A stretch of 38,108 bases of DNA from a virus (lineage: Duplodnaviria; Caudoviricetes), in the IMG/VR virus record IMGVR_UViG_3300033984_000165, positions 1-38,108 of that record; one strand, 5' to 3'. A model generated the notes under the pieces. It saw only the letters and a list, made by a program, of their open reading frames with translations. It ran no database searches and had not been told where the DNA came from. The translations under genes were made by a program, and so were the position numbers. Below, one piece after another: positions 13,229 to 38,108 of this stretch. The first letter of the stretch is position 1. Each line of letters starts with the position of its first letter.

Positions 13229-13330
13229 TATATTTGTGTCGTGTTAGGTCGGAAACCATAGTAACACTTAAAAGTATTGCCTTATCAATTTGTAGACTTC
13301 CGACCTCTACATTTTGGTAAGGCTTTTTTT
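13229..13330 (+). promoter_or_regulatory. Promoter plus kissing-loop attenuator-like leader of the replication operon
   Basis: TATATTTG at 13229-13236; hairpin 13241-13267; terminator 13279-13330; loop sequences AGGTCGGAA and TTCCGACCT are complementary. Confidence 0.75.
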
Positions 13331-13351
13331 GTTTATTAAAAATTATATATT

Positions 13352-13600
13352 ATGTATTACGAAGTTTTTCCTTTTGGTAAATACAAGGGAGTAAAATTAA
13401 ATGAATTGCCATCTACTTATATTGTTTTATCGTTAGAGCAATTTGATTTACCTACTGAATTAGTGAATGAATTGTATAAAATTTTACTCGGAAGATTAAA
13501 AGTGTTTTCTATTATGGAAGGCAAAGTTAAAACATTAAGTAAAAAGGAATACTTGGTATGGTCGAAAGAGAGTAAGGATAAATATGAAATGCCTTTTTAA
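13352..13600 (+). CDS. DUF3820-like small protein
   Basis: N-terminal FPFGKYKG...ELPSTYI motif. Confidence 0.65.
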   Translation: MYYEVFPFGKYKGVKLNELPSTYIVLSLEQFDLPTELVNELYKILLGRLKVFSIMEGKVKTLSKKEYLVWSKESKDKYEMPF

Positions 13601-13601
13601 T

Positions 13602-14321
13602 ATGAATAGTTACGAATTATCTAGAAATTGGTTTGATTGGTGTTTTGAAAATCCAGAAAAGATTTCGCCAAATCATTCAGCTATGTATTTTTTTATAATT
13701 GAGCATTGTAATCGTTTAGGTTGGAAAGAAAAATTTGGACTTCCAATGGAAATGACTAAAGAAGCAATAGGTATAAAAAACTACCGAACATTCTCAACTA
13801 CATTTAATGATTTGATTGAATGGGGATTCATTAAATTGATTCAAAAATCAAAAAATCAACATTCAAGCAACGTAATTGCTATTGTAAAAAATACAAAAGC
13901 AAAGTCAAAAGCGCTAGACGTAGCAATACAAAAGCAAAGTCAAAAGCAAGTCCACGACACTGTATGTATAGATAAACCTAATAACCTAATAACAATAGAA
14001 CCTAATAACATATTATTGTTCGATGAATTTTGGAGATTATATGGTAAAAGTTCAGATAAAAAAAATTGCTTAATCAAATTTGAAAAATTAACTAATGAAG
14101 AATTAGAGAAAATTAAAATTAATTTACCTAACTACATTTTATCAACTCCAGATGTTAAGTATCGTAAAAATCCATTGACTTGGTTAAATGGTAAATGTTG
14201 GGATGATGAAGTACAAATTCAGAGTAATAATCAATCTAATGTCTTAGGTATTACAAAAGATGGTGAAGTTATAACTGATATGTATGTTTATACTGCTTAC
14301 AAACAAATGGGGAAAATATGA
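13602..14321 (+). CDS. Replication initiator / replisome organiser
   Basis: N-terminal wHTH-like region, low-complexity linker with DNA iterons, C-terminal FDEFWRLYGK...YRKNPLTWLN; lies upstream of the helicase. Confidence 0.8.
   Translation: MNSYELSRNWFDWCFENPEKISPNHSAMYFFIIEHCNRLGWKEKFGLPMEMTKEAIGIKNYRTFSTTFNDLIEWGFIKLIQKSKNQHSSNVIAIVKNTKAKSKALDVAIQKQSQKQVHDTVCIDKPNNLITIEPNNILLFDEFWRLYGKSSDKKNCLIKFEKLTNEELEKIKINLPNYILSTPDVKYRKNPLTWLNGKCWDDEVQIQSNNQSNVLGITKDGEVITDMYVYTAYKQMGKI
13890..14009 (+). repeat. Iteron-like repeats inside the initiator gene (putative origin)
   Basis: 23-bp AATACAAAAGCAAAGTCAAAAGC at 13890 and 13925 (35 nt apart, so out of frame), then three AACCTAATA units at 13975-14009. 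Confidence 0.7.
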
Positions 14322-15310
14322 TTTTAAAAGATGGACATAGCACAAGTTACCTATTCGATTATAGGGATGGTAAAATACAACAAGGGCTTGGATTAGGTAT
14401 TTACTTAGATGATTATTTAAGATTTAAAAGAGGTCAATTAAATTTTATACTTGGACATGATAACGTAGGTAAATCTTACTGGATGTTATGGTATTTCCTT
14501 GCACTAGCAACTAATCATAATCTTACATTCACTTTGTTTATGGATGAAAATTCAGCACAAAAAGCAATGAGAGATTTAATTAGAATGTATTTTGGTAGAA
14601 AAATAACTGAACTTACAGATAGTGAATTGCAAGTAGGAATAATGAAAATAGAACATCACTTTAAATTTGTAGATAACTTGAAACGATACACTCCAGAGGA
14701 ATTGTTGGAGGTATTTAAAACAAGTAAAACGGACGCTTACTTAATTGACCCCTTCAACGGATTAAAGACAGCTTTATCTTATTCTAGCAACTACGATGTA
14801 TTGAATGATTTAAAAATGTTTTGTAAGACTACAAATTCAACTATCTACATAAACGCTCACCCAAGTACAGCAAGTGGTCGTAGACAAGCTGTATATCCAC
14901 AAGGACACGCTTGGCAAGGACATATCACTCCACCATTTAAAGATGATATTGAAGGCGGTAAAGCATTTTCAAATAAAGCAGATGATTTTATCGTAATCCA
15001 TAGATTGATTGGTAGTGAAACAATGAAGTTTGAAACACTTGTAGAAATTAAAAAAGTAAAAGATACCGATGATGGTGGTGGTCAAACATTACTTGAACAG
15101 CCTATTATGTTTAATTACAATTCTGCAAACGGATTTAAATGCGGTGGTATAGATTGTATTAAACACCCTAAAACAAGTTATCAAGCACCAGTAGAACTTC
15201 CAATACCAAAACATCCTCCAGTAGCAAGTTTTTACGAAGCAGGAGTTAGAGAGAATGAACCAGAAAGAATTATTAACGACCCTGACAAAGGGATTCAATT
15301 TCCATTTTAA
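14318..15310 (+). CDS. SF4 (DnaB/T7 gp4-like) replicative helicase
   Basis: Walker A GHDNVGKS, Walker B YLIDPFN, then INAHP and DIEGGKAFSNKADDFIVIHR. Confidence 0.85.
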   Translation: MILKDGHSTSYLFDYRDGKIQQGLGLGIYLDDYLRFKRGQLNFILGHDNVGKSYWMLWYFLALATNHNLTFTLFMDENSAQKAMRDLIRMYFGRKITELTDSELQVGIMKIEHHFKFVDNLKRYTPEELLEVFKTSKTDAYLIDPFNGLKTALSYSSNYDVLNDLKMFCKTTNSTIYINAHPSTASGRRQAVYPQGHAWQGHITPPFKDDIEGGKAFSNKADDFIVIHRLIGSETMKFETLVEIKKVKDTDDGGGQTLLEQPIMFNYNSANGFKCGGIDCIKHPKTSYQAPVELPIPKHPPVASFYEAGVRENEPERIINDPDKGIQFPF

Positions 15311-25582: not shown

Positions 25583-26274
25583 TGGAACAAAACGAAGAAT
25601 CTGAACCTAAAAAACCTAAGGTTACAAGACCAAGAAAGAAAAAGGTAGAGCCAAGAGGTGTAAAAGCTGGAACTAAGCGTGGTAAATACGTTATAAAACC
25701 TAAAAAACGTGGTGATGAAGGGCTTTCTTTCATTGAAAAAGTACAATTTAGGAACAAATACAGCGAAAAAGAGGTAAAAGAAGCACTTTATCCACTAAAA
25801 GTACCTAAACCAGACGATGTAACTAAAAAAGATGAACCTATAGAAGTTGAACAAACCGATGTACCTAAAAGAAACCTTGGTGGTAGACCTAAAGGAAGAT
25901 TAAATAGAAGTACAGTTGTTCGTGCTATTTTAGAAGCTACACGATGGGGAAAAGACCCTATTACGGGTATTGAGTCATATATTCCTATAGAATATCAAAT
26001 GACACTAGCTATTTTACAAAAAGCACTCAAAGGTGATGTAAATGCCTATAAAGCATTAATGGATAATGCGTATAAACCTCACGCACAAGAAGTTGAAAGT
26101 AAAAACGTAACAGTTGATATTAGCAATTTTTCAGAAGAAGATATTAAAGCACTATTAAATGACGATGACGATGACGAACCAGACTACTTTAGAGAACAAG
26201 AACTTGCCCTCGGAGAAGGAACAGAAGACAGCAACGAAGGAAGAAGCGAGGAAAGCACTGGAATACCATCTTAG
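25582..26274 (+). CDS. terS: Putative terminase small subunit
   Basis: Directly upstream of and overlapping terL; NLGGRPKG motif and KALKGDVNAYKALMD. Confidence 0.65.
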   Translation: MEQNEESEPKKPKVTRPRKKKVEPRGVKAGTKRGKYVIKPKKRGDEGLSFIEKVQFRNKYSEKEVKEALYPLKVPKPDDVTKKDEPIEVEQTDVPKRNLGGRPKGRLNRSTVVRAILEATRWGKDPITGIESYIPIEYQMTLAILQKALKGDVNAYKALMDNAYKPHAQEVESKNVTVDISNFSEEDIKALLNDDDDDEPDYFREQELALGEGTEDSNEGRSEESTGIPS

Positions 26275-27595
26275 AGCCAAGTTAGGTAAAGATGATTTTT
26301 GGGAGTTTTGTAAGTTCTACGATAAAGACTTTTTTCTTAAACGTAAATTCTTACAACGTGTCGCTAGAGCTTTTCAAAGAATCGAGGAAGGTAAGATTAA
26401 CTCTTTATCAGTATCAGTACCACCAAGGGGTGGGAAATCATATATAACAACATTATTCTGTGCTTGGACTTTAGGTAGGAATCCTTCTGAATCTGTAATG
26501 CGTAATACTTGTACTGGAACTCTATATCAAAAGTTCTCTTACGATGTGCGTCAAGTGTTAAAGTCAGAAAAGTTTAACTCCGTATTTCCAGAAGTAAGTA
26601 TTTCCAATGATAAAGCAAACCTTAATGGTTGGAATACTAACCAATCTCGTCAAGTAGGTTACTTTGGTGCTGGTGTAGGTGGAACAATTATCGGTTTTGG
26701 TGCTACAAAACTTGCTATTACCGATGACTTGTATCGTGGTATTGAAGATGCACTATCTGATGTTACCAATGATAGGGTTTTGCAATGGAAAGAAGGTACT
26801 CACGACTCTCGTCTTGAACGAACGTGTGCTAAGATTGATATTGGTACAAGATGGTCGACAAATGATGTTATAGGGAAGAATTTTCAAGAAGGTAGTTATG
26901 ATGAATCTATTGTTATTCCTGCCTTAGATGCGAATGAAGAAACTTTTTGTGCTGATGTAATGTCTACAGACCAATATAAGATGATTCGTAAAAAAATCAA
27001 TCCAGATATTTGGAGTGCAGAGTATATGCAAGAACCAGTCGATTTAAAAGGTCGTTTATTCTCTAACTTACGTACTATTAGTGAAGCAGACTTTAATCTC
27101 ATCAAAGGTAGAAGCGCAGGAAGTATTGCTTATGTCGATGTATCAGACCAAGGAGCAGATTATACAGCTATGGCACTAGCAGTTATTATTGATGGTACAA
27201 TTTACATTGCAGACTATTGTTTTAATAAAAATAATACCGATGTAACCATTCCTTTGATTGCGGAAAAGTTAAATAGATACCGAACGTCTTATTGTAGGGT
27301 AGAAAGTAATGCAATGGGCGCGGTCTTTGCTAGAACACTTCAAAAACAAACTAGAACTAAGATTTTGCAAGTGCATAACACACAAAATAAAATGACTCGT
27401 ATAATTATGCAATCAGCAAGTATAAATAATGCCTTTGTCTTTGTAAAATATGAGAATAATAACGATTATCACCAGTTTATGACAAACCTACTATCTTTTA
27501 GTAAGGAAGGTAAAATGAAAAATGATGATGCTCCAGATTGCTTGGCTGGATTGTCAATGTTAATTAAATCTTTATTTAAAAGACTTGATATATAA
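26159..27595 (+). CDS. terL: Terminase large subunit
   Basis: Walker A VPPRGGKS, Walker B LAITDD, GTRW, AEYMQEP, nuclease motifs YVDVSDQGADYTA, VESN and NDDAPD. Confidence 0.95.
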   Translation: MTMTMTNQTTLENKNLPSEKEQKTATKEEARKALEYHLRAKLGKDDFWEFCKFYDKDFFLKRKFLQRVARAFQRIEEGKINSLSVSVPPRGGKSYITTLFCAWTLGRNPSESVMRNTCTGTLYQKFSYDVRQVLKSEKFNSVFPEVSISNDKANLNGWNTNQSRQVGYFGAGVGGTIIGFGATKLAITDDLYRGIEDALSDVTNDRVLQWKEGTHDSRLERTCAKIDIGTRWSTNDVIGKNFQEGSYDESIVIPALDANEETFCADVMSTDQYKMIRKKINPDIWSAEYMQEPVDLKGRLFSNLRTISEADFNLIKGRSAGSIAYVDVSDQGADYTAMALAVIIDGTIYIADYCFNKNNTDVTIPLIAEKLNRYRTSYCRVESNAMGAVFARTLQKQTRTKILQVHNTQNKMTRIIMQSASINNAFVFVKYENNNDYHQFMTNLLSFSKEGKMKNDDAPDCLAGLSMLIKSLFKRLDI

Positions 27596-27603
27596 AAAAA
27601 GAG

Positions 27604-27705
27604 TATATTTACACAGTTATTAGTGCTTTTCTTTCTTTTCTTTCGGTGCTAACTACTTTTGATTCTTTTTTTTAAACCTACTGATTAATTTCGGTAGGTT
27701 TTTTT
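27604..27705 (+). ncRNA. Candidate small RNA 2 (promoter-like TATATTTAC, pyrimidine-loop hairpin, terminator)
   Basis: TATATTTACACAGTT; loop TTTTCTTTCTTTTCTTTC; terminator at 27674-27705. Confidence 0.45.
27674..27705 (+). terminator. Intrinsic terminator after terL
   Basis: AAACCTACTGA-TTAATT-TCGGTAGGTTT followed by a T run. Confidence 0.85.
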
Positions 27706-27775
27706 ATTTATTGATGTTATTATATATTCACATTCTAAACTACTTATGTTAGATTTTAGATTTAGAGTAGAGGTG

Positions 27776-27969
27776 ATGTAAGACAAGTTATCCCCCTTCC
27801 CCCTTGTAGAGAGATAACCTATTTTACACCACCAGATTATTTAAACTACTTCCGTTGAGTTTTGAGTTTGTCGTATCGGCTGTAGGATGACACAAGTTGT
27901 CGAAAGTCATTACCTACATTTAAGATGATTTAGACCTTCCTTTAGAGTTGGTTGAGTATTGTCTTACAT
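27776..27969 (-). ncRNA. Candidate structured non-coding RNA
   Basis: 11-bp closing inverted repeat, two internal hairpins (one needs G-U pairs available only on the minus strand), degenerate direct repeats, no convincing ORF. Confidence 0.55.
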
Positions 27970-28000
27970 ACTATGACTCTTTTTGTTTGGGATAGGTATA

Positions 28001-28119
28001 AAAAGAAAAAACCTCTAAAGATACCAGCTTAAGAGGTTTTTTTATAATAAAGGTTGTTTAAGGACAACAAATATACTAAAAGAATCGTCAGATGCTGGTA
28101 TCATCTGATAACAAATATA
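28001..28119 (-). promoter_or_regulatory. Second promoter plus kissing-loop attenuator-like leader; its terminator can also end the portal transcript
   Basis: TATATTTG at 28119-28112 and 28075-28068; hairpin 28108-28088; terminator 28042-28001; GATACCAGC and GCTGGTATC are complementary. Confidence 0.7.
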
Positions 28120-28126
28120 TGTATAA

Positions 28127-29356
28127 TTATTTAATTCCTTTCTTTAATCCAAGAAATAATTTTTTCTCCTCATCACTTAGAGTGATTCCTAATTCTCCTT
28201 GTATTTTGATTAAAGCATTTGCTCTGTAATCTATAGATTGACTTTCTTGAAGTATATCATTCTGTAGAACTGGTAAATGAGTATAATCAGCAACTAATCT
28301 CAACCCTTCTTTGTCTAATCCTAATTGTTCAGTAATGTTGTTATAAATTCTTTCAGCTTCTGGAATGATAGTAGAAGTGTAACATAATCTCTCACCATAA
28401 TTCACGTTAGAGTAAGTCGAACCACTTTCATTAGAGAAAATATAGTAGTTAAGACCAAAAGCGTCTATAATAGCAAGTTTATCAGCTTTAAGTTCATCAA
28501 ACAACATTAAATCCTTAGTAGGATAAGACATTGGCGTCCATTTAACGTCGTTTTCAGAAATAATAATCTCGTCTTTACTTCTATTATACCAATCTTTACG
28601 TATTTGTTCTTTTTCTTCTGGACTCATTGGTAAAGCACCACCTAAATCAGAGTTTGAGGCAGATAAGATACCAATAGCACCAATATTCTCTAAAAGTATG
28701 TTACGTTTATTGTATTGTGCCTTAATATTAGATAACGGAAACTTTAAAGATTCAATTCTTGATACAGAATCTAAAATATTAACACCATCCGTAGTTTGAA
28801 TAATAACTACTTCTTCATTTAATAATGTTTCTGGTTTATCACCTTCATAGTTATAAGTGTAATCTTTTATAAGACCACCTTTATCCATTTGTTTTAAAGT
28901 TCTTCCAGAAGTATTGATTTGAACCTTATGTCTAGCAAGTGGAACAAATAAATTAACTATTCCAAAACTTCTTCTTGGTGCATAACATAAAGCAGTTGAA
29001 AATAAACTATCATTTACAGATATAGAATACATAACATCCTGCCAAGTTTGCATTGGATTAGGATTCTTAATTAAATCAAGCACCCAATGTTTTTCTACTT
29101 CCGTTCCATCCTCTTTTACAAGTCTTGGTCTGCCTTGTGAAAGCATTTGAGCCTTCTTATCAACCACAGTTCTAAGTTCTGGTATTTCAACGTATGCTTG
29201 AAATGGTTTTTCGGTATTCATCCAAATTGGAACTTTCTTACCATAGAAGTCATGTTGATATGCTCTATTTGTATCTAATAGGGTATTTATTTCCCTAAGT
29301 TGATTATTATTTATAGGTGTTCCAAAAAAAGCGTTCCAAAAAGAAGGGTTACTCAT
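28127..29356 (-). CDS. Portal protein (HK97-like), inverted relative to all other genes
   Basis: LIKNPNPMQTW, GAIGILS, WTPMSYPTKDLMLFDE, TYSNV and YTSTIIPEAERI; ATG 29356 preferred. Confidence 0.92.
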   Translation of the reverse strand: MSNPSFWNAFFGTPINNNQLREINTLLDTNRAYQHDFYGKKVPIWMNTEKPFQAYVEIPELRTVVDKKAQMLSQGRPRLVKEDGTEVEKHWVLDLIKNPNPMQTWQDVMYSISVNDSLFSTALCYAPRRSFGIVNLFVPLARHKVQINTSGRTLKQMDKGGLIKDYTYNYEGDKPETLLNEEVVIIQTTDGVNILDSVSRIESLKFPLSNIKAQYNKRNILLENIGAIGILSASNSDLGGALPMSPEEKEQIRKDWYNRSKDEIIISENDVKWTPMSYPTKDLMLFDELKADKLAIIDAFGLNYYIFSNESGSTYSNVNYGERLCYTSTIIPEAERIYNNITEQLGLDKEGLRLVADYTHLPVLQNDILQESQSIDYRANALIKIQGELGITLSDEEKKLFLGLKKGIK

Positions 29357-29367
29357 AATAATTTTTT

Positions 29368-29388
29368 TACATTTGTACAACAAATTTA
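29368..29388. promoter_or_regulatory. Face-to-face bidirectional promoter core
   Basis: TACATTTG on + (29368-29375) and TAAATTTG on - (29388-29381), 5 bp apart, in a 39-bp gap. Confidence 0.7.
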
Positions 29389-34320: not shown

Positions 34321-34735
34321 AGAAATACCATTGTTTAATTGGCAAAAGTGCCTTGAGGGCGATGTAAAGTACGTTAATTTACAAACTAAAGAGGATTCTG
34401 GAAATCAAGAAGCATTTAATAAGTTATACGACTCTTTTTTACAGAAGCGTGGTGTAAACAAAGAATATAAGAAGTATTTGGATATTCTAAAGAAGAAAGC
34501 AATGCTTCAATGTGAGTTTTTAATCACAAAAGACAATTTCAAGCTAACACAAATAGAAATAGAAGATGCTAAAATTGTATCTTTACAAAAGACTTCGGAA
34601 GAAGGGTTAAGTATTGATAAGACGTTGATATACTTAGGAAAATGGTTAGGTTATAGATTAGATTGGAAAATTATCTCTGTATCAGAGTTTTATTCGATAC
34701 TAGAAGAATACGAAAAACAAAGTAATATTAGTTGA
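34292..34735 (+). CDS. Putative tail assembly chaperone
   Basis: Immediately upstream of the tape measure gene. Confidence 0.5.
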   Translation: MQERHYQSIEEIPLFNWQKCLEGDVKYVNLQTKEDSGNQEAFNKLYDSFLQKRGVNKEYKKYLDILKKKAMLQCEFLITKDNFKLTQIEIEDAKIVSLQKTSEEGLSIDKTLIYLGKWLGYRLDWKIISVSEFYSILEEYEKQSNIS

Positions 34736-34736
34736 T

Positions 34737-37700
34737 ATGAGTGAAAAAATTAAGAGTTCCGATATATTTGAAGGCGATATATTCAAAATAGTTGTAGATA
34801 GTGCAGAATTAGCTAAAACTAAGATTGCTGAACTAAACAAAGAATTAGTAGAAGTAGGAACGTCTTTTAAAAAAGAATTAAATGGAATTAAAGCTGATAA
34901 TGTAAAAGAAATTGAAGCATTAATTGTAAAAGTTAAGGAATTAACTAAAGCAGTAGATGCTCAAACGCAAGTAAATAAAGCGAATGAAATAGCAATTCGT
35001 GAAGCTAAAAAGACTTCCGAACAAGCATTACGTGAAGAAGAAAAAACTAAACGTGATGTATTAAAAACGCAAGAACAAATAAATAAATCAAATGAACGTG
35101 CTGTAAAAAATCAAAAAGATTTATCCGATGCCTACAAACAATTAGCACAAAACACTCGTGATTTAAAGAATGAATCTAAGCGCTTAGGTGCTGAAATGAT
35201 TGAACTTGAAAAACAAGGCAAGAAAAATTCAGCAGAATACTATAAACTAAGCAGACAATATAAAGAAACTACTAAATCAGCAATCGAAGGTGATAAAGCA
35301 CTTAAAAAACTTGATAGTACAGTAGGTGATAACTTCCGTAATGTAGGTAATTATTCTAAAGCTATTGGTGGATTGAAAAACGCTTTAATGCAATTAGGAC
35401 TAGCATTTGGTGTATTTGATGGTATTCGTGCATTATTAGATACGCAGATTAAGTTAGATTCACTTAATTTATCACTAAAGAACGTTTCTAGTAGCACCAA
35501 AGAGTATCAAGCTAACTTTGCCTTTCTTAAAGATTTATCATTGTCTTACGGACAAGATTTACTTGTATTGATTGATTCGTACAAAAACTTTATTGCTTCT
35601 ACTTCATCATCTAATTTAAGTTTGACAGAACGTAAAAGAATTTACGAAAGTGTAATAAAGGCAGGTTCAGCATTAGCCTTATCAAACGATAATATCAAAG
35701 GTTCATTACTTGCAATATCTCAAATGTTCTCTAAGGGTACGGTTTCAGCAGAGGAATTAAGACAGCAATTAGGTGAAAGATTACCAGGTGCTTTTGGTAT
35801 CATGGCTGAATCTATGGGTGTTACCGAAGCTGAATTAGGTAAATTAATGAAGGAAGGTAAAGTTTTGGCAGATGATGTAATGCCAAGATTTGCTATTTTG
35901 CTTGAACGTAGTTTTGGGGAGAATGCTAAGGCTAGATTACAGACTTTTGGTGGAGCATGGAATGTACTTAAAAATAATGTTACTTTATATTTCGACCAAG
36001 CACAAAAGAGTGTTGGGGTAAATAAAGTGTTGGCAGGAGTAATATTAGGATTAGGTAAAAATATTGGTGAGATAATAAATAATATTCGACAATTAATTAT
36101 TGCATTTGTTTCTTTTAAGGCTTTATTAATAGCAAATGAAATAAGACTTAAAGGTTTATCTGTAGGATTTTTAAATATGGCTAAAAATGCACTTACTGGT
36201 GCTAATGCAGTTAAGATATTTGGATTGTCATTAAAAAATATTGCATTTTTAGCTGTTATTGATGGAATAGTTAAAATGACTGAAAGATTTTTAGATTTAT
36301 CAAAAGGTATTGATATTGCTAAAAGAAGTTATGACATATATTTATCAACTACAAATAAAGGAAATAAAAAAGCAACTGACTTTCTTGTAAAAGTAAATGA
36401 TGAATATTTAAATGAGCAAGAAAAACTTGCGAAGAAAAAGAAAGATGGATTAATTTCTCAAGCTGAATTCAATAAAAAAATGGATGAAGCTGAATTAGAA
36501 AGGGTTACTAAAATACAAAAAAGAATTAGAGAATTAGAGGTTAGTATATCTATTGGTAAAAAAAGCACTAAAGATATAAGAAATCTTTTCGGAGGTAAAT
36601 CACCAGTAGAATTAGCAAAACAAGCAAGAGAAGACAGAGGTTTTATAGCGAATCTATTAAATACAATAGGTATTGAAACTAAAAGTGGAGATTTATTAGA
36701 TAAAGAGTTTTTTGCTAAATTATATCAAAAAGAAAAAGGAAATATAAATGATTTTTACACTCAATTAGAAAAATTAAGAAGTTCATTAAGTGATGATACT
36801 ATATTAAAAACTAAGTATTCTGGCGGTAAAGGAAGTACTAATAAAGATATATTAAATAGAACAATAGAAGTTCGAGATTTAAATATACAATATAATCAAA
36901 CAAATGAATATTTAAGTAGACAACTTGAGATATTAAAAGATATTGATAGATTAAATGCAGAAAACAAATTACAAGAAACTATTGATAAAACAACAAGCGT
37001 TTTGACTAGCCAAGAAAAAACTGTTAATATGACTGGTAAATACAATGCAGGATTAGTTGAGATAGCTGTAAATGAGGAATATGAAGCACGTAAAAAGTTT
37101 GAAGAAAAAAGATTTGAAGCAGAAAAAGAAGATAAAAAAATACAAGATGAAAAATTACTTAAAGATGAATTAGATTCTATTAAAGAACAAGAAGATAAAT
37201 TCTTACAGCAATATTTAGAAGTTAAATCTGATACTGAAAGAAAAATAGGTGATTTAGAAATAAATCTTAAAAAGAAAAATTTAAGCACAGCTTCTAAGCA
37301 ACGATTAGGTGAAGAAAAGAAAAATTTAGAAGCACAATTAAAACAAAATGAGGTTTACCTAAAAAAAATAGAGGATGGTGCAACAGAACAGAGAAATATT
37401 GTATTAGACAATAAACTTAAGCGTGAAGCAGACACTAATCTTGAAATAGAAAAATTACAAATAATTCACGAAGGAAATTTAGCTAATATTCAACGTGATT
37501 CACAAACTAAATTACAAGACGAATTAGATAAGTTAGAATTAATACGTGCTGAAAAACGATTAGAAATGATTAAGAATACAGCAGAATCTGTAAATAACTT
37601 AATCCAAAAATCACTTGAACACTATATCAATATGGCAGAACGTAGAATTGATATGTTAGATAAACGTATGGATAGGATGTCAACACAAGCTGACTTCTTA

Positions 37701-38108
37701 CGTGAAAAAGCTGTGGCAGGAAATATACAAGCACAAGAATCACTTGCTGTAATTGATAAACAAGAAATAGAAGCGCAAAAAGAACGAATGAATGAGCAAA
37801 GGTCAATACAGAAACTACAAATGGCAATGGCTGTATTCCAAGCATATTCTAATAATATTCAAAATGCTAAAGTTGGTGAAAATCCATTTACAAAAACACT
37901 TACTGATGTAACTTTATTAAGTCAATTTATAAATTCACTACCTACATTTATTGATGGTACTGAAACAAATATTGCTAGCGCTTTAGGTAAACCACATTTA
38001 CAAGGTCAAGATGGTTATTTAGTTCGTGTAGATGGTTCAGAAAAAGTACTTAATCCACAACTTTCAGCAATGACTGGTAACATGACTACAATGGAAATTG
38101 CTAAATTA
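34737..38108 (+). CDS. Tape measure protein (3'-truncated by the window; about 1200 aa when circularised; not in track)
   Basis: MSEKIKSSDIF start, long coiled coils, tape-measure domain AISQMFSKGTVSAEELRQQLGERLPGAFGIMA; in frame with the MAERRID segment at 37632. Confidence 0.92.
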   Translation, partial: MSEKIKSSDIFEGDIFKIVVDSAELAKTKIAELNKELVEVGTSFKKELNGIKADNVKEIEALIVKVKELTKAVDAQTQVNKANEIAIREAKKTSEQALREEEKTKRDVLKTQEQINKSNERAVKNQKDLSDAYKQLAQNTRDLKNESKRLGAEMIELEKQGKKNSAEYYKLSRQYKETTKSAIEGDKALKKLDSTVGDNFRNVGNYSKAIGGLKNALMQLGLAFGVFDGIRALLDTQIKLDSLNLSLKNVSSSTKEYQANFAFLKDLSLSYGQDLLVLIDSYKNFIASTSSSNLSLTERKRIYESVIKAGSALALSNDNIKGSLLAISQMFSKGTVSAEELRQQLGERLPGAFGIMAESMGVTEAELGKLMKEGKVLADDVMPRFAILLERSFGENAKARLQTFGGAWNVLKNNVTLYFDQAQKSVGVNKVLAGVILGLGKNIGEIINNIRQLIIAFVSFKALLIANEIRLKGLSVGFLNMAKNALTGANAVKIFGLSLKNIAFLAVIDGIVKMTERFLDLSKGIDIAKRSYDIYLSTTNKGNKKATDFLVKVNDEYLNEQEKLAKKKKDGLISQAEFNKKMDEAELERVTKIQKRIRELEVSISIGKKSTKDIRNLFGGKSPVELAKQAREDRGFIANLLNTIGIETKSGDLLDKEFFAKLYQKEKGNINDFYTQLEKLRSSLSDDTILKTKYSGGKGSTNKDILNRTIEVRDLNIQYNQTNEYLSRQLEILKDIDRLNAENKLQETIDKTTSVLTSQEKTVNMTGKYNAGLVEIAVNEEYEARKKFEEKRFEAEKEDKKIQDEKLLKDELDSIKEQEDKFLQQYLEVKSDTERKIGDLEINLKKKNLSTASKQRLGEEKKNLEAQLKQNEVYLKKIEDGATEQRNIVLDNKLKREADTNLEIEKLQIIHEGNLANIQRDSQTKLQDELDKLELIRAEKRLEMIKNTAESVNNLIQKSLEHYINMAERRIDMLDKRMDRMSTQADFLREKAVAGNIQAQESLAVIDKQEIEAQKERMNEQRSIQKLQMAMAVFQAYSNNIQNAKVGENPFTKTLTDVTLLSQFINSLPTFIDGTETNIASALGKPHLQGQDGYLVRVDGSEKVLNPQLSAMTGNMTTMEIAKL
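37592..38108 (+). repeat. Imperfect terminal direct repeat, right copy
   Basis: Aligns with 1-517. Confidence 0.95.

Follow-up and report, generated by a model that had tools for sequence, protein, structure and literature searches.

In the available parts of the sources cited here, ColE1 is described as replicating by a mechanism that uses RNA II as the primer (PMC3628316, PMC3167613), the G tract of mitochondrial CSB II as stabilizing priming R-loops (PMC3488243), and oriA, oriE, oriF, and oriG of phage T4 as transcription-dependent R-loop origins (PMC12599619). ARRPOF, PAGEV, and GEBRO are structured motifs of a few hundred nucleotides linked to plasmid replication, and ARRPOF lies in a 1-kb gene-free region that suffices for replication without a rep gene, again according to the available part of the source (Weinberg et al., 2017; PMC5737381). 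We compare with these systems a structured element that lies between the terminase and portal genes of a phage.

The element in the terminase-portal gap

The DNA analyzed here, a 38,108-nt stretch that we call the window, is likely a whole phage genome, as indicated by the recurrence of its first 517 nt at its end and a CheckV completeness of 100%. The two copies of this terminal overlap (1-517 and 37592-38108) are only 92-98% identical. Elsewhere, ≈2 kb of the window (34735-36896) contain no ORF of at least 80 aa (table 11, called start), and their composition looks coding. Judged from sites resembling TAnnTTTG, which we take to be the Bacteroidota -7 promoter consensus here and in all promoter-like calls below, the host is likely one of the Flavobacteria.

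The element occupies a 531-nt gap between the convergent terminase (+) and portal (-) genes (Table 1). Its core, 130-170 nt in length, is two hairpins of the minus strand rather than an RNA closed by an 11-bp repeat. On that strand, a promoter-like octamer is followed by a leader hairpin, a terminator, hairpin 1, a linker, hairpin 2, and a pyrimidine tail. The minus strand in the window folds better than shuffled sequences (z = -4.0), and the plus strand does not (z = -0.7).

Table 1. Positions of the element, its flanks, and related features (window coordinates unless a locus is named)
Feature	Position	Strand	Remarks
Resident replication module of the window phage	13229..15310	+	Leader, 82-aa ORF, initiator, primase/helicase
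First kissing-loop leader	13229-13330	+	Promoter, hairpin, and terminator with complementary loop; precedes 82-aa ORF
Resident initiator	13584-14321	+	
Resident primase/helicase	14318-15310	+	
Terminase large subunit (flank)	26159..27595	+	PHROG 38, E 7.5e-73
Terminator-like hairpin, terminase side	27671..27705	+	Bounds insert; analogues in empty-slot relatives
Pyrimidine-rich tail and degenerate repeat R3	27733..27770	-	No U tract after hairpin 2
Core hairpin 2	27772..27833	-	62 nt, 26 pairs
Second RACUUR hexamer	27784-27789	-	Hairpin 2, 3' strand
G5-AA-G5 tract	27792-27803	-	Hairpin 2, 3' strand
Degenerate repeat R2	27834..27867	-	Variable linker between hairpins; length differs widely among homologs
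Core hairpin 1 (27881-27918) with flanks	27878..27923	-	Invariant flanks UUAAAU and GCC
RACUUR hexamer, hairpin-1 loop	27893-27898	-	Invariant columns
Degenerate repeat R1	27923..27957	-	Subgroup-specific
Small hairpin using one arm of 11-bp repeat	27961..27977	-	Subgroup-specific
Intrinsic-terminator-like hairpin and U tract	28006..28042	-	Loop is kissing partner of leader loop
Leader hairpin	28088..28108	-	Loop complementary (9 nt) to terminator loop, p 0.002 vs shuffles
Promoter-like TATATTTG octamer	28112..28119	-	Second copy at 28068-28075
Portal gene (flank)	28127..29383	-	Convergent with terminase; PHROG 2662, E 1.3e-23
Diverged version, L351	4950-5130	-	GGACUUA twice, no G tract
Diverged version, L353	8440-8680	-	GGACUUA twice, no G tract

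The original prediction had outlined a structured RNA at this locus, and all of the sequence features that it listed are present where it had placed them. Its 11-bp inverted repeat is indeed perfect and was equalled in only 3 of 1000 shuffles; the closing stem that it was taken to form is not conserved. The repeat measures 11 bp only in the window and the near-identical L012; among the 18 homologs tested (L296 has no upstream sequence for this test), its length in the remaining 16 is 0-6 bp, and its arms have local pairing partners instead. The small hairpin that uses one arm is kept with swapped bases in L224, L218, and L290, as judged by eye. Hairpin 1 folds at -10.2 kcal/mol. The second predicted hairpin, drawn at 27787-27818, prefers the minus strand as claimed (-12.0 vs -3.8 kcal/mol on the plus strand), and its limits had to be widened to those of core hairpin 2. 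The flagged span was also incomplete, in that the 5' part of the element with its promoter and leader (28006-28119) fell outside.

Two of the predicted direct-repeat relations are real (R1/R2, 0 of 2000 shuffles; R2/R3, 1 of 2000), and the third is weak (R1/R3, 133 of 2000). The repeats are limited to one homolog subgroup and are missing from most homologs, which disfavors the repeat-built protein sponge that had been suggested as one function. A type III antitoxin-like or sponge repeat RNA was rejected on the same ground, because the hairpins are kept and the repeats are not: the strict repeat motif occurs twice in only 4 of 18 homologs scored, and L290 has a variant by eye. The longest minus-strand ORF starting with ATG has 28 codons, as predicted; a small peptide was rejected, because this ORF loses its ATG in three relatives (L012, L013, and L017). 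We likewise rejected a retron or other reverse transcriptase-linked RNA, since no reverse transcriptase was found among the 43 window ORFs or the neighbor ORFs scanned and the terminal repeat is not conserved.

The 5' part of the element is likely a kissing-loop attenuator. Of 18 copies, 10 have complementary leader and terminator loops of 8-11 nt, and several others have versions that are shorter or include wobble pairs; the two loops change together in L013, L017, L280, L281, L282, L284, L292, L300, and L304. The octamer is retained in L012, L013, and L017, although the leader behind it has been exchanged. Of the 22 homologs scanned, 19 have an upstream TAnnTTTG/A octamer that points the same way; none was found in L291, L296, or L294, and L352 also scored none, so that it marks most homologs and not all, with almost no upstream DNA available for L291 and L296. 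By eye, no kissing leader was recognized in L333, L337, L339, L330, L359, or L294. Between promoter and hairpin 1, a conserved block GAUGAAG..GUAACCG..GG occurs in L333, L337, L339, L330, L357, L359, and L368, mostly in copies without a kissing leader, and may be another control domain.

The same kind of kissing-loop leader precedes protein initiators. The design of the leader in the resident replication module of the window phage recurs before DUF6291 genes (L326, L347) and an L145 ORF, so that to us it looks like a general gate for replication modules. Close relatives of the window phage (G180 and G181; L386, L385) share only the last ≈40 residues of the resident initiator, and the rest of the gene has been exchanged. 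Directly after the terminase gene, 27596-27710 (+) contains a promoter-like octamer, a hairpin, and a terminator, all kept in empty-slot relatives, and is a candidate short U-rich RNA.

The slot between terminase and portal is variable. In 21 loci of close relatives (terminase identity at least 92%), it consists of a short gap of 171-197 nt in 14, an HNH-like ORF judged by eye in four, and the element in three; thus, the element is accessory in the window's clade. All three carriers show changes on both sides of the hairpin-1 stem, and in two the leader has been replaced by another, whose two loops are again complementary. The HNH-like ORFs (L001, L006, L015, and L016) share a structured leader in this slot. 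In relatives with 74% terminase identity (L023, from 4496 on the plus strand, and L024), the slot holds a different non-coding and strongly folding cargo, which has GAAA tetraloops and then an AT-rich run and lies on the opposite strand behind another kissing-loop leader; gaps of the same size occur in L025 and L027. This cargo matched neither Rfam nor our model R1 and may represent a second family of origins of the kind proposed below.

In the window, L290, and L297, the element is a neighbor of terminase or portal genes, as would suit a packaging-linked RNA like the pRNA of phi29, which was a further function originally suggested. We regard such a role as highly improbable, given that the element is absent from 18 of the 21 close relatives and from all four complete relatives scanned whole, stands in other gene contexts elsewhere, is found on circles without packaging genes (see below), and has no Rfam match.

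Homologs, a swapped gene, and small circles

Searches with patterns of the hairpin-1 loop and of hairpin 2 gave divergent copies in unrelated phages: 6 of 48 loop-motif matches had the hairpin, and 10 of 27 matches to the hairpin-2 pattern belonged to the family. A further pattern, made of the hairpin-1 loop and its flanks and silent on the hairpin-1 stem and hairpin 2, matched 11 viral loci, all with hairpin 2, and 19 loci in metagenomes, of which 17 had both hairpins, one was cut short, and one was a chance match. L081 was set aside as a chance match, as were L299 and four genome-contig matches, which had neither the hairpins nor a model score. In 17 aligned copies of hairpin 1, 97.1% of cells are paired and 9 of 10 pairs show two-sided changes, a result reached in 0 of 500 shuffles, with slid controls at 31-48%. 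The pairs of hairpin 1 thus covary, and the conserved pairing among homologs that the original prediction had named as a check is present. Because the sequences are related, these family counts are not counts of independent events.

No Rfam model matched the window at gathering score, and an Rfam search taken to E values up to 5 returned only chance or perfect-hairpin matches. BLAST against cultured phages and plasmids (PLSDB) gave no homolog of the core and nothing beyond chance. Model R1 had no match in Nonlabens phage P12024S or in 151 genomes sampled from the phylum of one Bacteroidota genome, where only 19 candidates were scored per genome, so that absence does not follow. A literature search, with most subscription journals outside its reach, found no description. 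We conclude that this is a real structured element, and apparently an undescribed one.

G005, G156, G162, G164, G166, G167, G172, and their relatives form a clade of phages of 28-34 kb. We fetched 35 loci by the G005 portal protein alone. Model R1 gave nine strong matches in these loci, seven of them new and all directly before a sigma-like gene. Thirteen of the loci cover the stretch before this gene, and they comprise the nine strong matches, two diverged look-alikes (L351 and L353), and two DUF6291 ORFs. The look-alikes keep both hexamers without the G tract and were unscored by R1; a small ORF that has no Pfam match (66 and 81 aa) comes after each of them. Both DUF6291 ORFs lie behind a kissing leader and contain internal DNA repeats. 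Among the 22 whole portal-selected records (phages of ≈30 kb), 11 carry the element in one copy each, two carry DUF6291, and none carries both, the other nine being mostly fragments. When only the eight records at least 90% complete are counted, six have the element, one has DUF6291, and one ends at the slot.

The exchange can be seen between G005 (30.4 kb), which carries the element, and G156. The sequences that flank the swapped cassette are 88% identical on one side and 84% on the other. The cassette measures 1.0 kb in G005 vs 1.25 kb in G156 and consists of the leader, the element or DUF6291, and the sigma-like gene (35% identical). All ORFs common to the element-bearing genomes are present in G156, except for one tail-region protein. 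DUF6291 homologs are fused to DnaB_2 (11 of 120) or Phg_2220_C (4 of 120), and the DUF6291 gene of G004 abuts DnaB; on the basis of these fusions and this adjacency, DUF6291 is likely the N-terminal domain of an initiator. The L326 DUF6291 protein has no C-terminal domain. A DUF6291 model matched no solved structure at E 0.001, an Atlas look-up returned only DUF6291 clusters, and the literature searched did not name the domain.

No known replication family was found in the 30 ORFs of G005, nor any helicase, primase, polymerase, or initiator family in the 67 ORFs of the closed genomes G172 and G167, which carry the element; 24.2% of initiators escape Pfam according to the available part of one survey, so that an unknown Rep can be missed (bioRxiv 10.1101/2024.09.03.610885). 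The genes recognized in G005, G167, and G172 are structural, sigma-like, methyltransferase, or HNH genes. By contrast, the window, G003, and G004 carry the element alongside replication genes, and therefore the element is not always the sole origin. GC skew followed gene orientation and did not point clearly to an origin; the element lies near a skew switch in G003 alone.

The element also occurs on very small circles, which are known from assemblies alone. L304, a circle of 1,198 bp (127-nt terminal repeat), has the promoter, the kissing leader, and both hairpins. Five of its seven ORFs were scanned and none reached the Pfam cut-off, and the other two overlap the element; no known Rep was detected by Pfam, which unknown Rep families can escape. 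L304 shares two stretches with the DNA that directly precedes bfmA or mobC on four Hymenobacter plasmids, and since this is the usual place of transfer origins, the two stretches are likely to be such. The four Hymenobacter plasmids carry a Rep and not the element. To judge from this content, L304 looks like an origin with transfer origins and little else. It also contains a perfect palindrome of ≈72 nt (293-367) and, oriented towards the element, an 81-aa ORF (578-823, +) whose N-terminus is hydrophobic. L296 (99-nt terminal repeat) and L300 are units of ≈1 kb with different kissing loops, as would be expected of incompatibility groups.

Taken together, these comparisons suggest that the element is probably a replication origin. 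A trans-acting or cis-regulatory RNA, serving as a host-protein decoy, in superinfection control, or as a regulator of the sigma-like gene, would cast the DUF6291 swap as an exchange of alternative regulators. Such a role fits the placement of the element directly before the sigma-like gene in the G005 clade, the exchange of that gene together with the element, the accessory distribution in the window's clade (3 of 21), and the putative nature of the DUF6291 function. We nevertheless consider it quite unlikely, because the window and the circles carry the element and no sigma-like gene, because the 3' end of the element lacks a terminator, and because closed phage genomes and a 1.2-kb circle would be left without an identified replicon.

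A proposed RNA primer or a possible single-stranded DNA origin

Hairpin 2 is about 57-68 nt long in most copies and is more stable on the promoter strand in 18 of 18 tested. G-U pairs make up 97 of its 516 tabulated pairs (19%) and cluster opposite the G tract, whose bases mostly stay G while their partners flip between C and U. The G tract to which the original prediction drew attention is widespread (24 of 26 homologs) and not universal, being absent from two of the 26 as well as from L351 and L353. The promoter strand is the more stable one in 23 of 26 homologs when folded as RNA (median z -3.3) and in 22 of 26 when folded as DNA (median z -2.2). In 12 of 14 homologs, the 8 nt that follow hairpin 2 include no more than four U residues, which argues against an sRNA-type terminator at the end of the element.

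In 24 of 26 homologs by script, or 25 if L276 is counted, the RACUUR hexamer of the hairpin-1 loop recurs in identical form on the 3' strand of hairpin 2. The two copies are near-invariant and change together, and their pairing partner varies; this covariation comes from a few related lineages. The hexamer switch described below is not universal, because the hexamer of L351 has no pairing partner.

We think it somewhat likely that the origin is protein-free and that its transcript primes replication through an R-loop, as at ColE1 and without an antisense RNA I. A primer RNA is the simplest account of the replacement of a likely initiator, the one-way promoter, the folding of the promoter strand, a G tract conserved beyond the needs of pairing, and the missing terminator at the end. 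Of the three functions originally suggested, a primer or R-loop RNA is accordingly the one favored by the comparative data, because the element stands in place of an initiator-type gene in sister phage genomes and a 1.2-kb circle without Rep shows no other candidate replicon; the predicted closing stem is not supported.

The main rival to an RNA primer is an origin whose hairpins act as single-stranded DNA, with transcription only opening the duplex. The displaced strand would fold and present its two RACTTR hexamers either to a host protein (a primase or PriA) or to a trans-supplied nicking enzyme, and this hexamer resembles what we take to be nick sites of the phiX174/pC194 type. The same comparative evidence serves both accounts, and the promoter strand folds as DNA too. 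The near-invariance of the hexamer in two direct copies with a varying partner, and its retention in L351 and L353 without the G tract, suit a DNA signal, and plasmid motifs may act as single-stranded DNA, according to the available part of Weinberg et al. (PMC5737381). We judge this version unlikely, however, since the 19% of G-U pairs and the weaker folding as DNA than as RNA fit RNA better, and since the ORFs scanned on the circle and in genomes with the element yielded no family of nicking enzymes. For a rolling-circle origin of the phiX174/pC194 type in particular, the ORFs scanned included no cognate HUH initiator.

Under the favored account of a primer RNA, host RNA polymerase would start at 28119-28112, and the kissing-loop attenuator would set the frequency of read-through and thereby likely the copy number. 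As the RNA emerges, the 5' strand of hairpin 2 would initially be captured through base pairing by the hexamer of the hairpin-1 loop. This capture would free the G tract to stay hybridized to the C-rich template as an R-loop, and hairpin 2, once closed, would represent the off state. As at ColE1, the remaining steps would fall to host RNase H, Pol I, and PriA, with trimming and extension of the primer and loading of the helicase. The hexamer switch is the least secure step, because the alternative loop-to-stem duplex is weak (-1.6 to -6.8 kcal/mol) and is absent in L351. The window phage possesses an initiator and a helicase of its own, and here the cassette would be an accessory second origin in a variable slot that is also used by HNH-like genes.

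Short contigs over the element were found in RNA-labelled runs at low depth (209 nt in X22/X23, 178 nt in X21). These contigs were selected for holding the element and may be DNA, X22 and X23 look like one data set, and in X21 the flanking genes of relatives are also covered.

Comparison with described replicons

In its broadest form, our tentative proposal is that a clade of ≈30-kb phages and mobilizable Bacteroidota plasmids of ≈1 kb replicate without a replication protein, from an RNA primer switch of ≈150 nt under a same-strand kissing-loop attenuator whose variable loops define incompatibility, and that this cassette moves between unrelated phages. If true, it would be a second, independent kind of protein-free replicon beside ColE1, none having been found described in Bacteroidota by our literature search. 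It would account for the copying of closed phage genomes in which no replication gene is recognizable and for the persistence of gene-free mini-plasmids that Rep-based typing misses. DUF6291 would gain a likely role as an initiator domain, and an origin of ≈400 bp with swappable compatibility loops would become available for Bacteroidota vectors. As a second origin, the cassette could allow a lytic genome such as that of the window to be maintained as a copy-controlled plasmid or to out-replicate its rivals.

The replisome of T4 is encoded by the phage itself, whereas none of the known replication genes was recognized in the G005-clade phages. For the T4 R-loop origins, the available part of the source describes no conserved RNA structure of this kind (PMC12599619). 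In contrast to the G tract of CSB II, the one found here forms one side of a covarying hairpin, and some homologs do without it; no homology between the two is implied. The nearest described analogues are ARRPOF, PAGEV, and GEBRO, in that a structured motif is tied to replication, as far as the available part of their description goes. Their Rfam models gave no gathering-score match in the window and no match at E values up to 5 in six homolog loci; unlike the element, they belong to other phyla, and the link to replication here is the swap with an initiator-type gene in phages.

The element does not qualify as a member of the ColE1 group, because it lacks homology and a conserved antisense promoter. 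It has no sequence or Rfam match to RNA II, and an antisense TAnnTTTG, the one promoter consensus tested, was found at a shared position in none of 22 homologs and not in the window. It further differs from ColE1 in its core of 130-170 nt, in a control that appears to be a same-strand kissing-loop attenuator, in its likely Bacteroidota hosts, and in its use by tailed phages. The element is like ColE1 in a promoter upstream of a predicted structured non-coding transcript and in its occurrence on very small mobilizable circles, and it may share with ColE1 the lack of a replication protein, to the extent that no known Rep was recognized on L304 or in G172 and G167, where unknown families can be missed.
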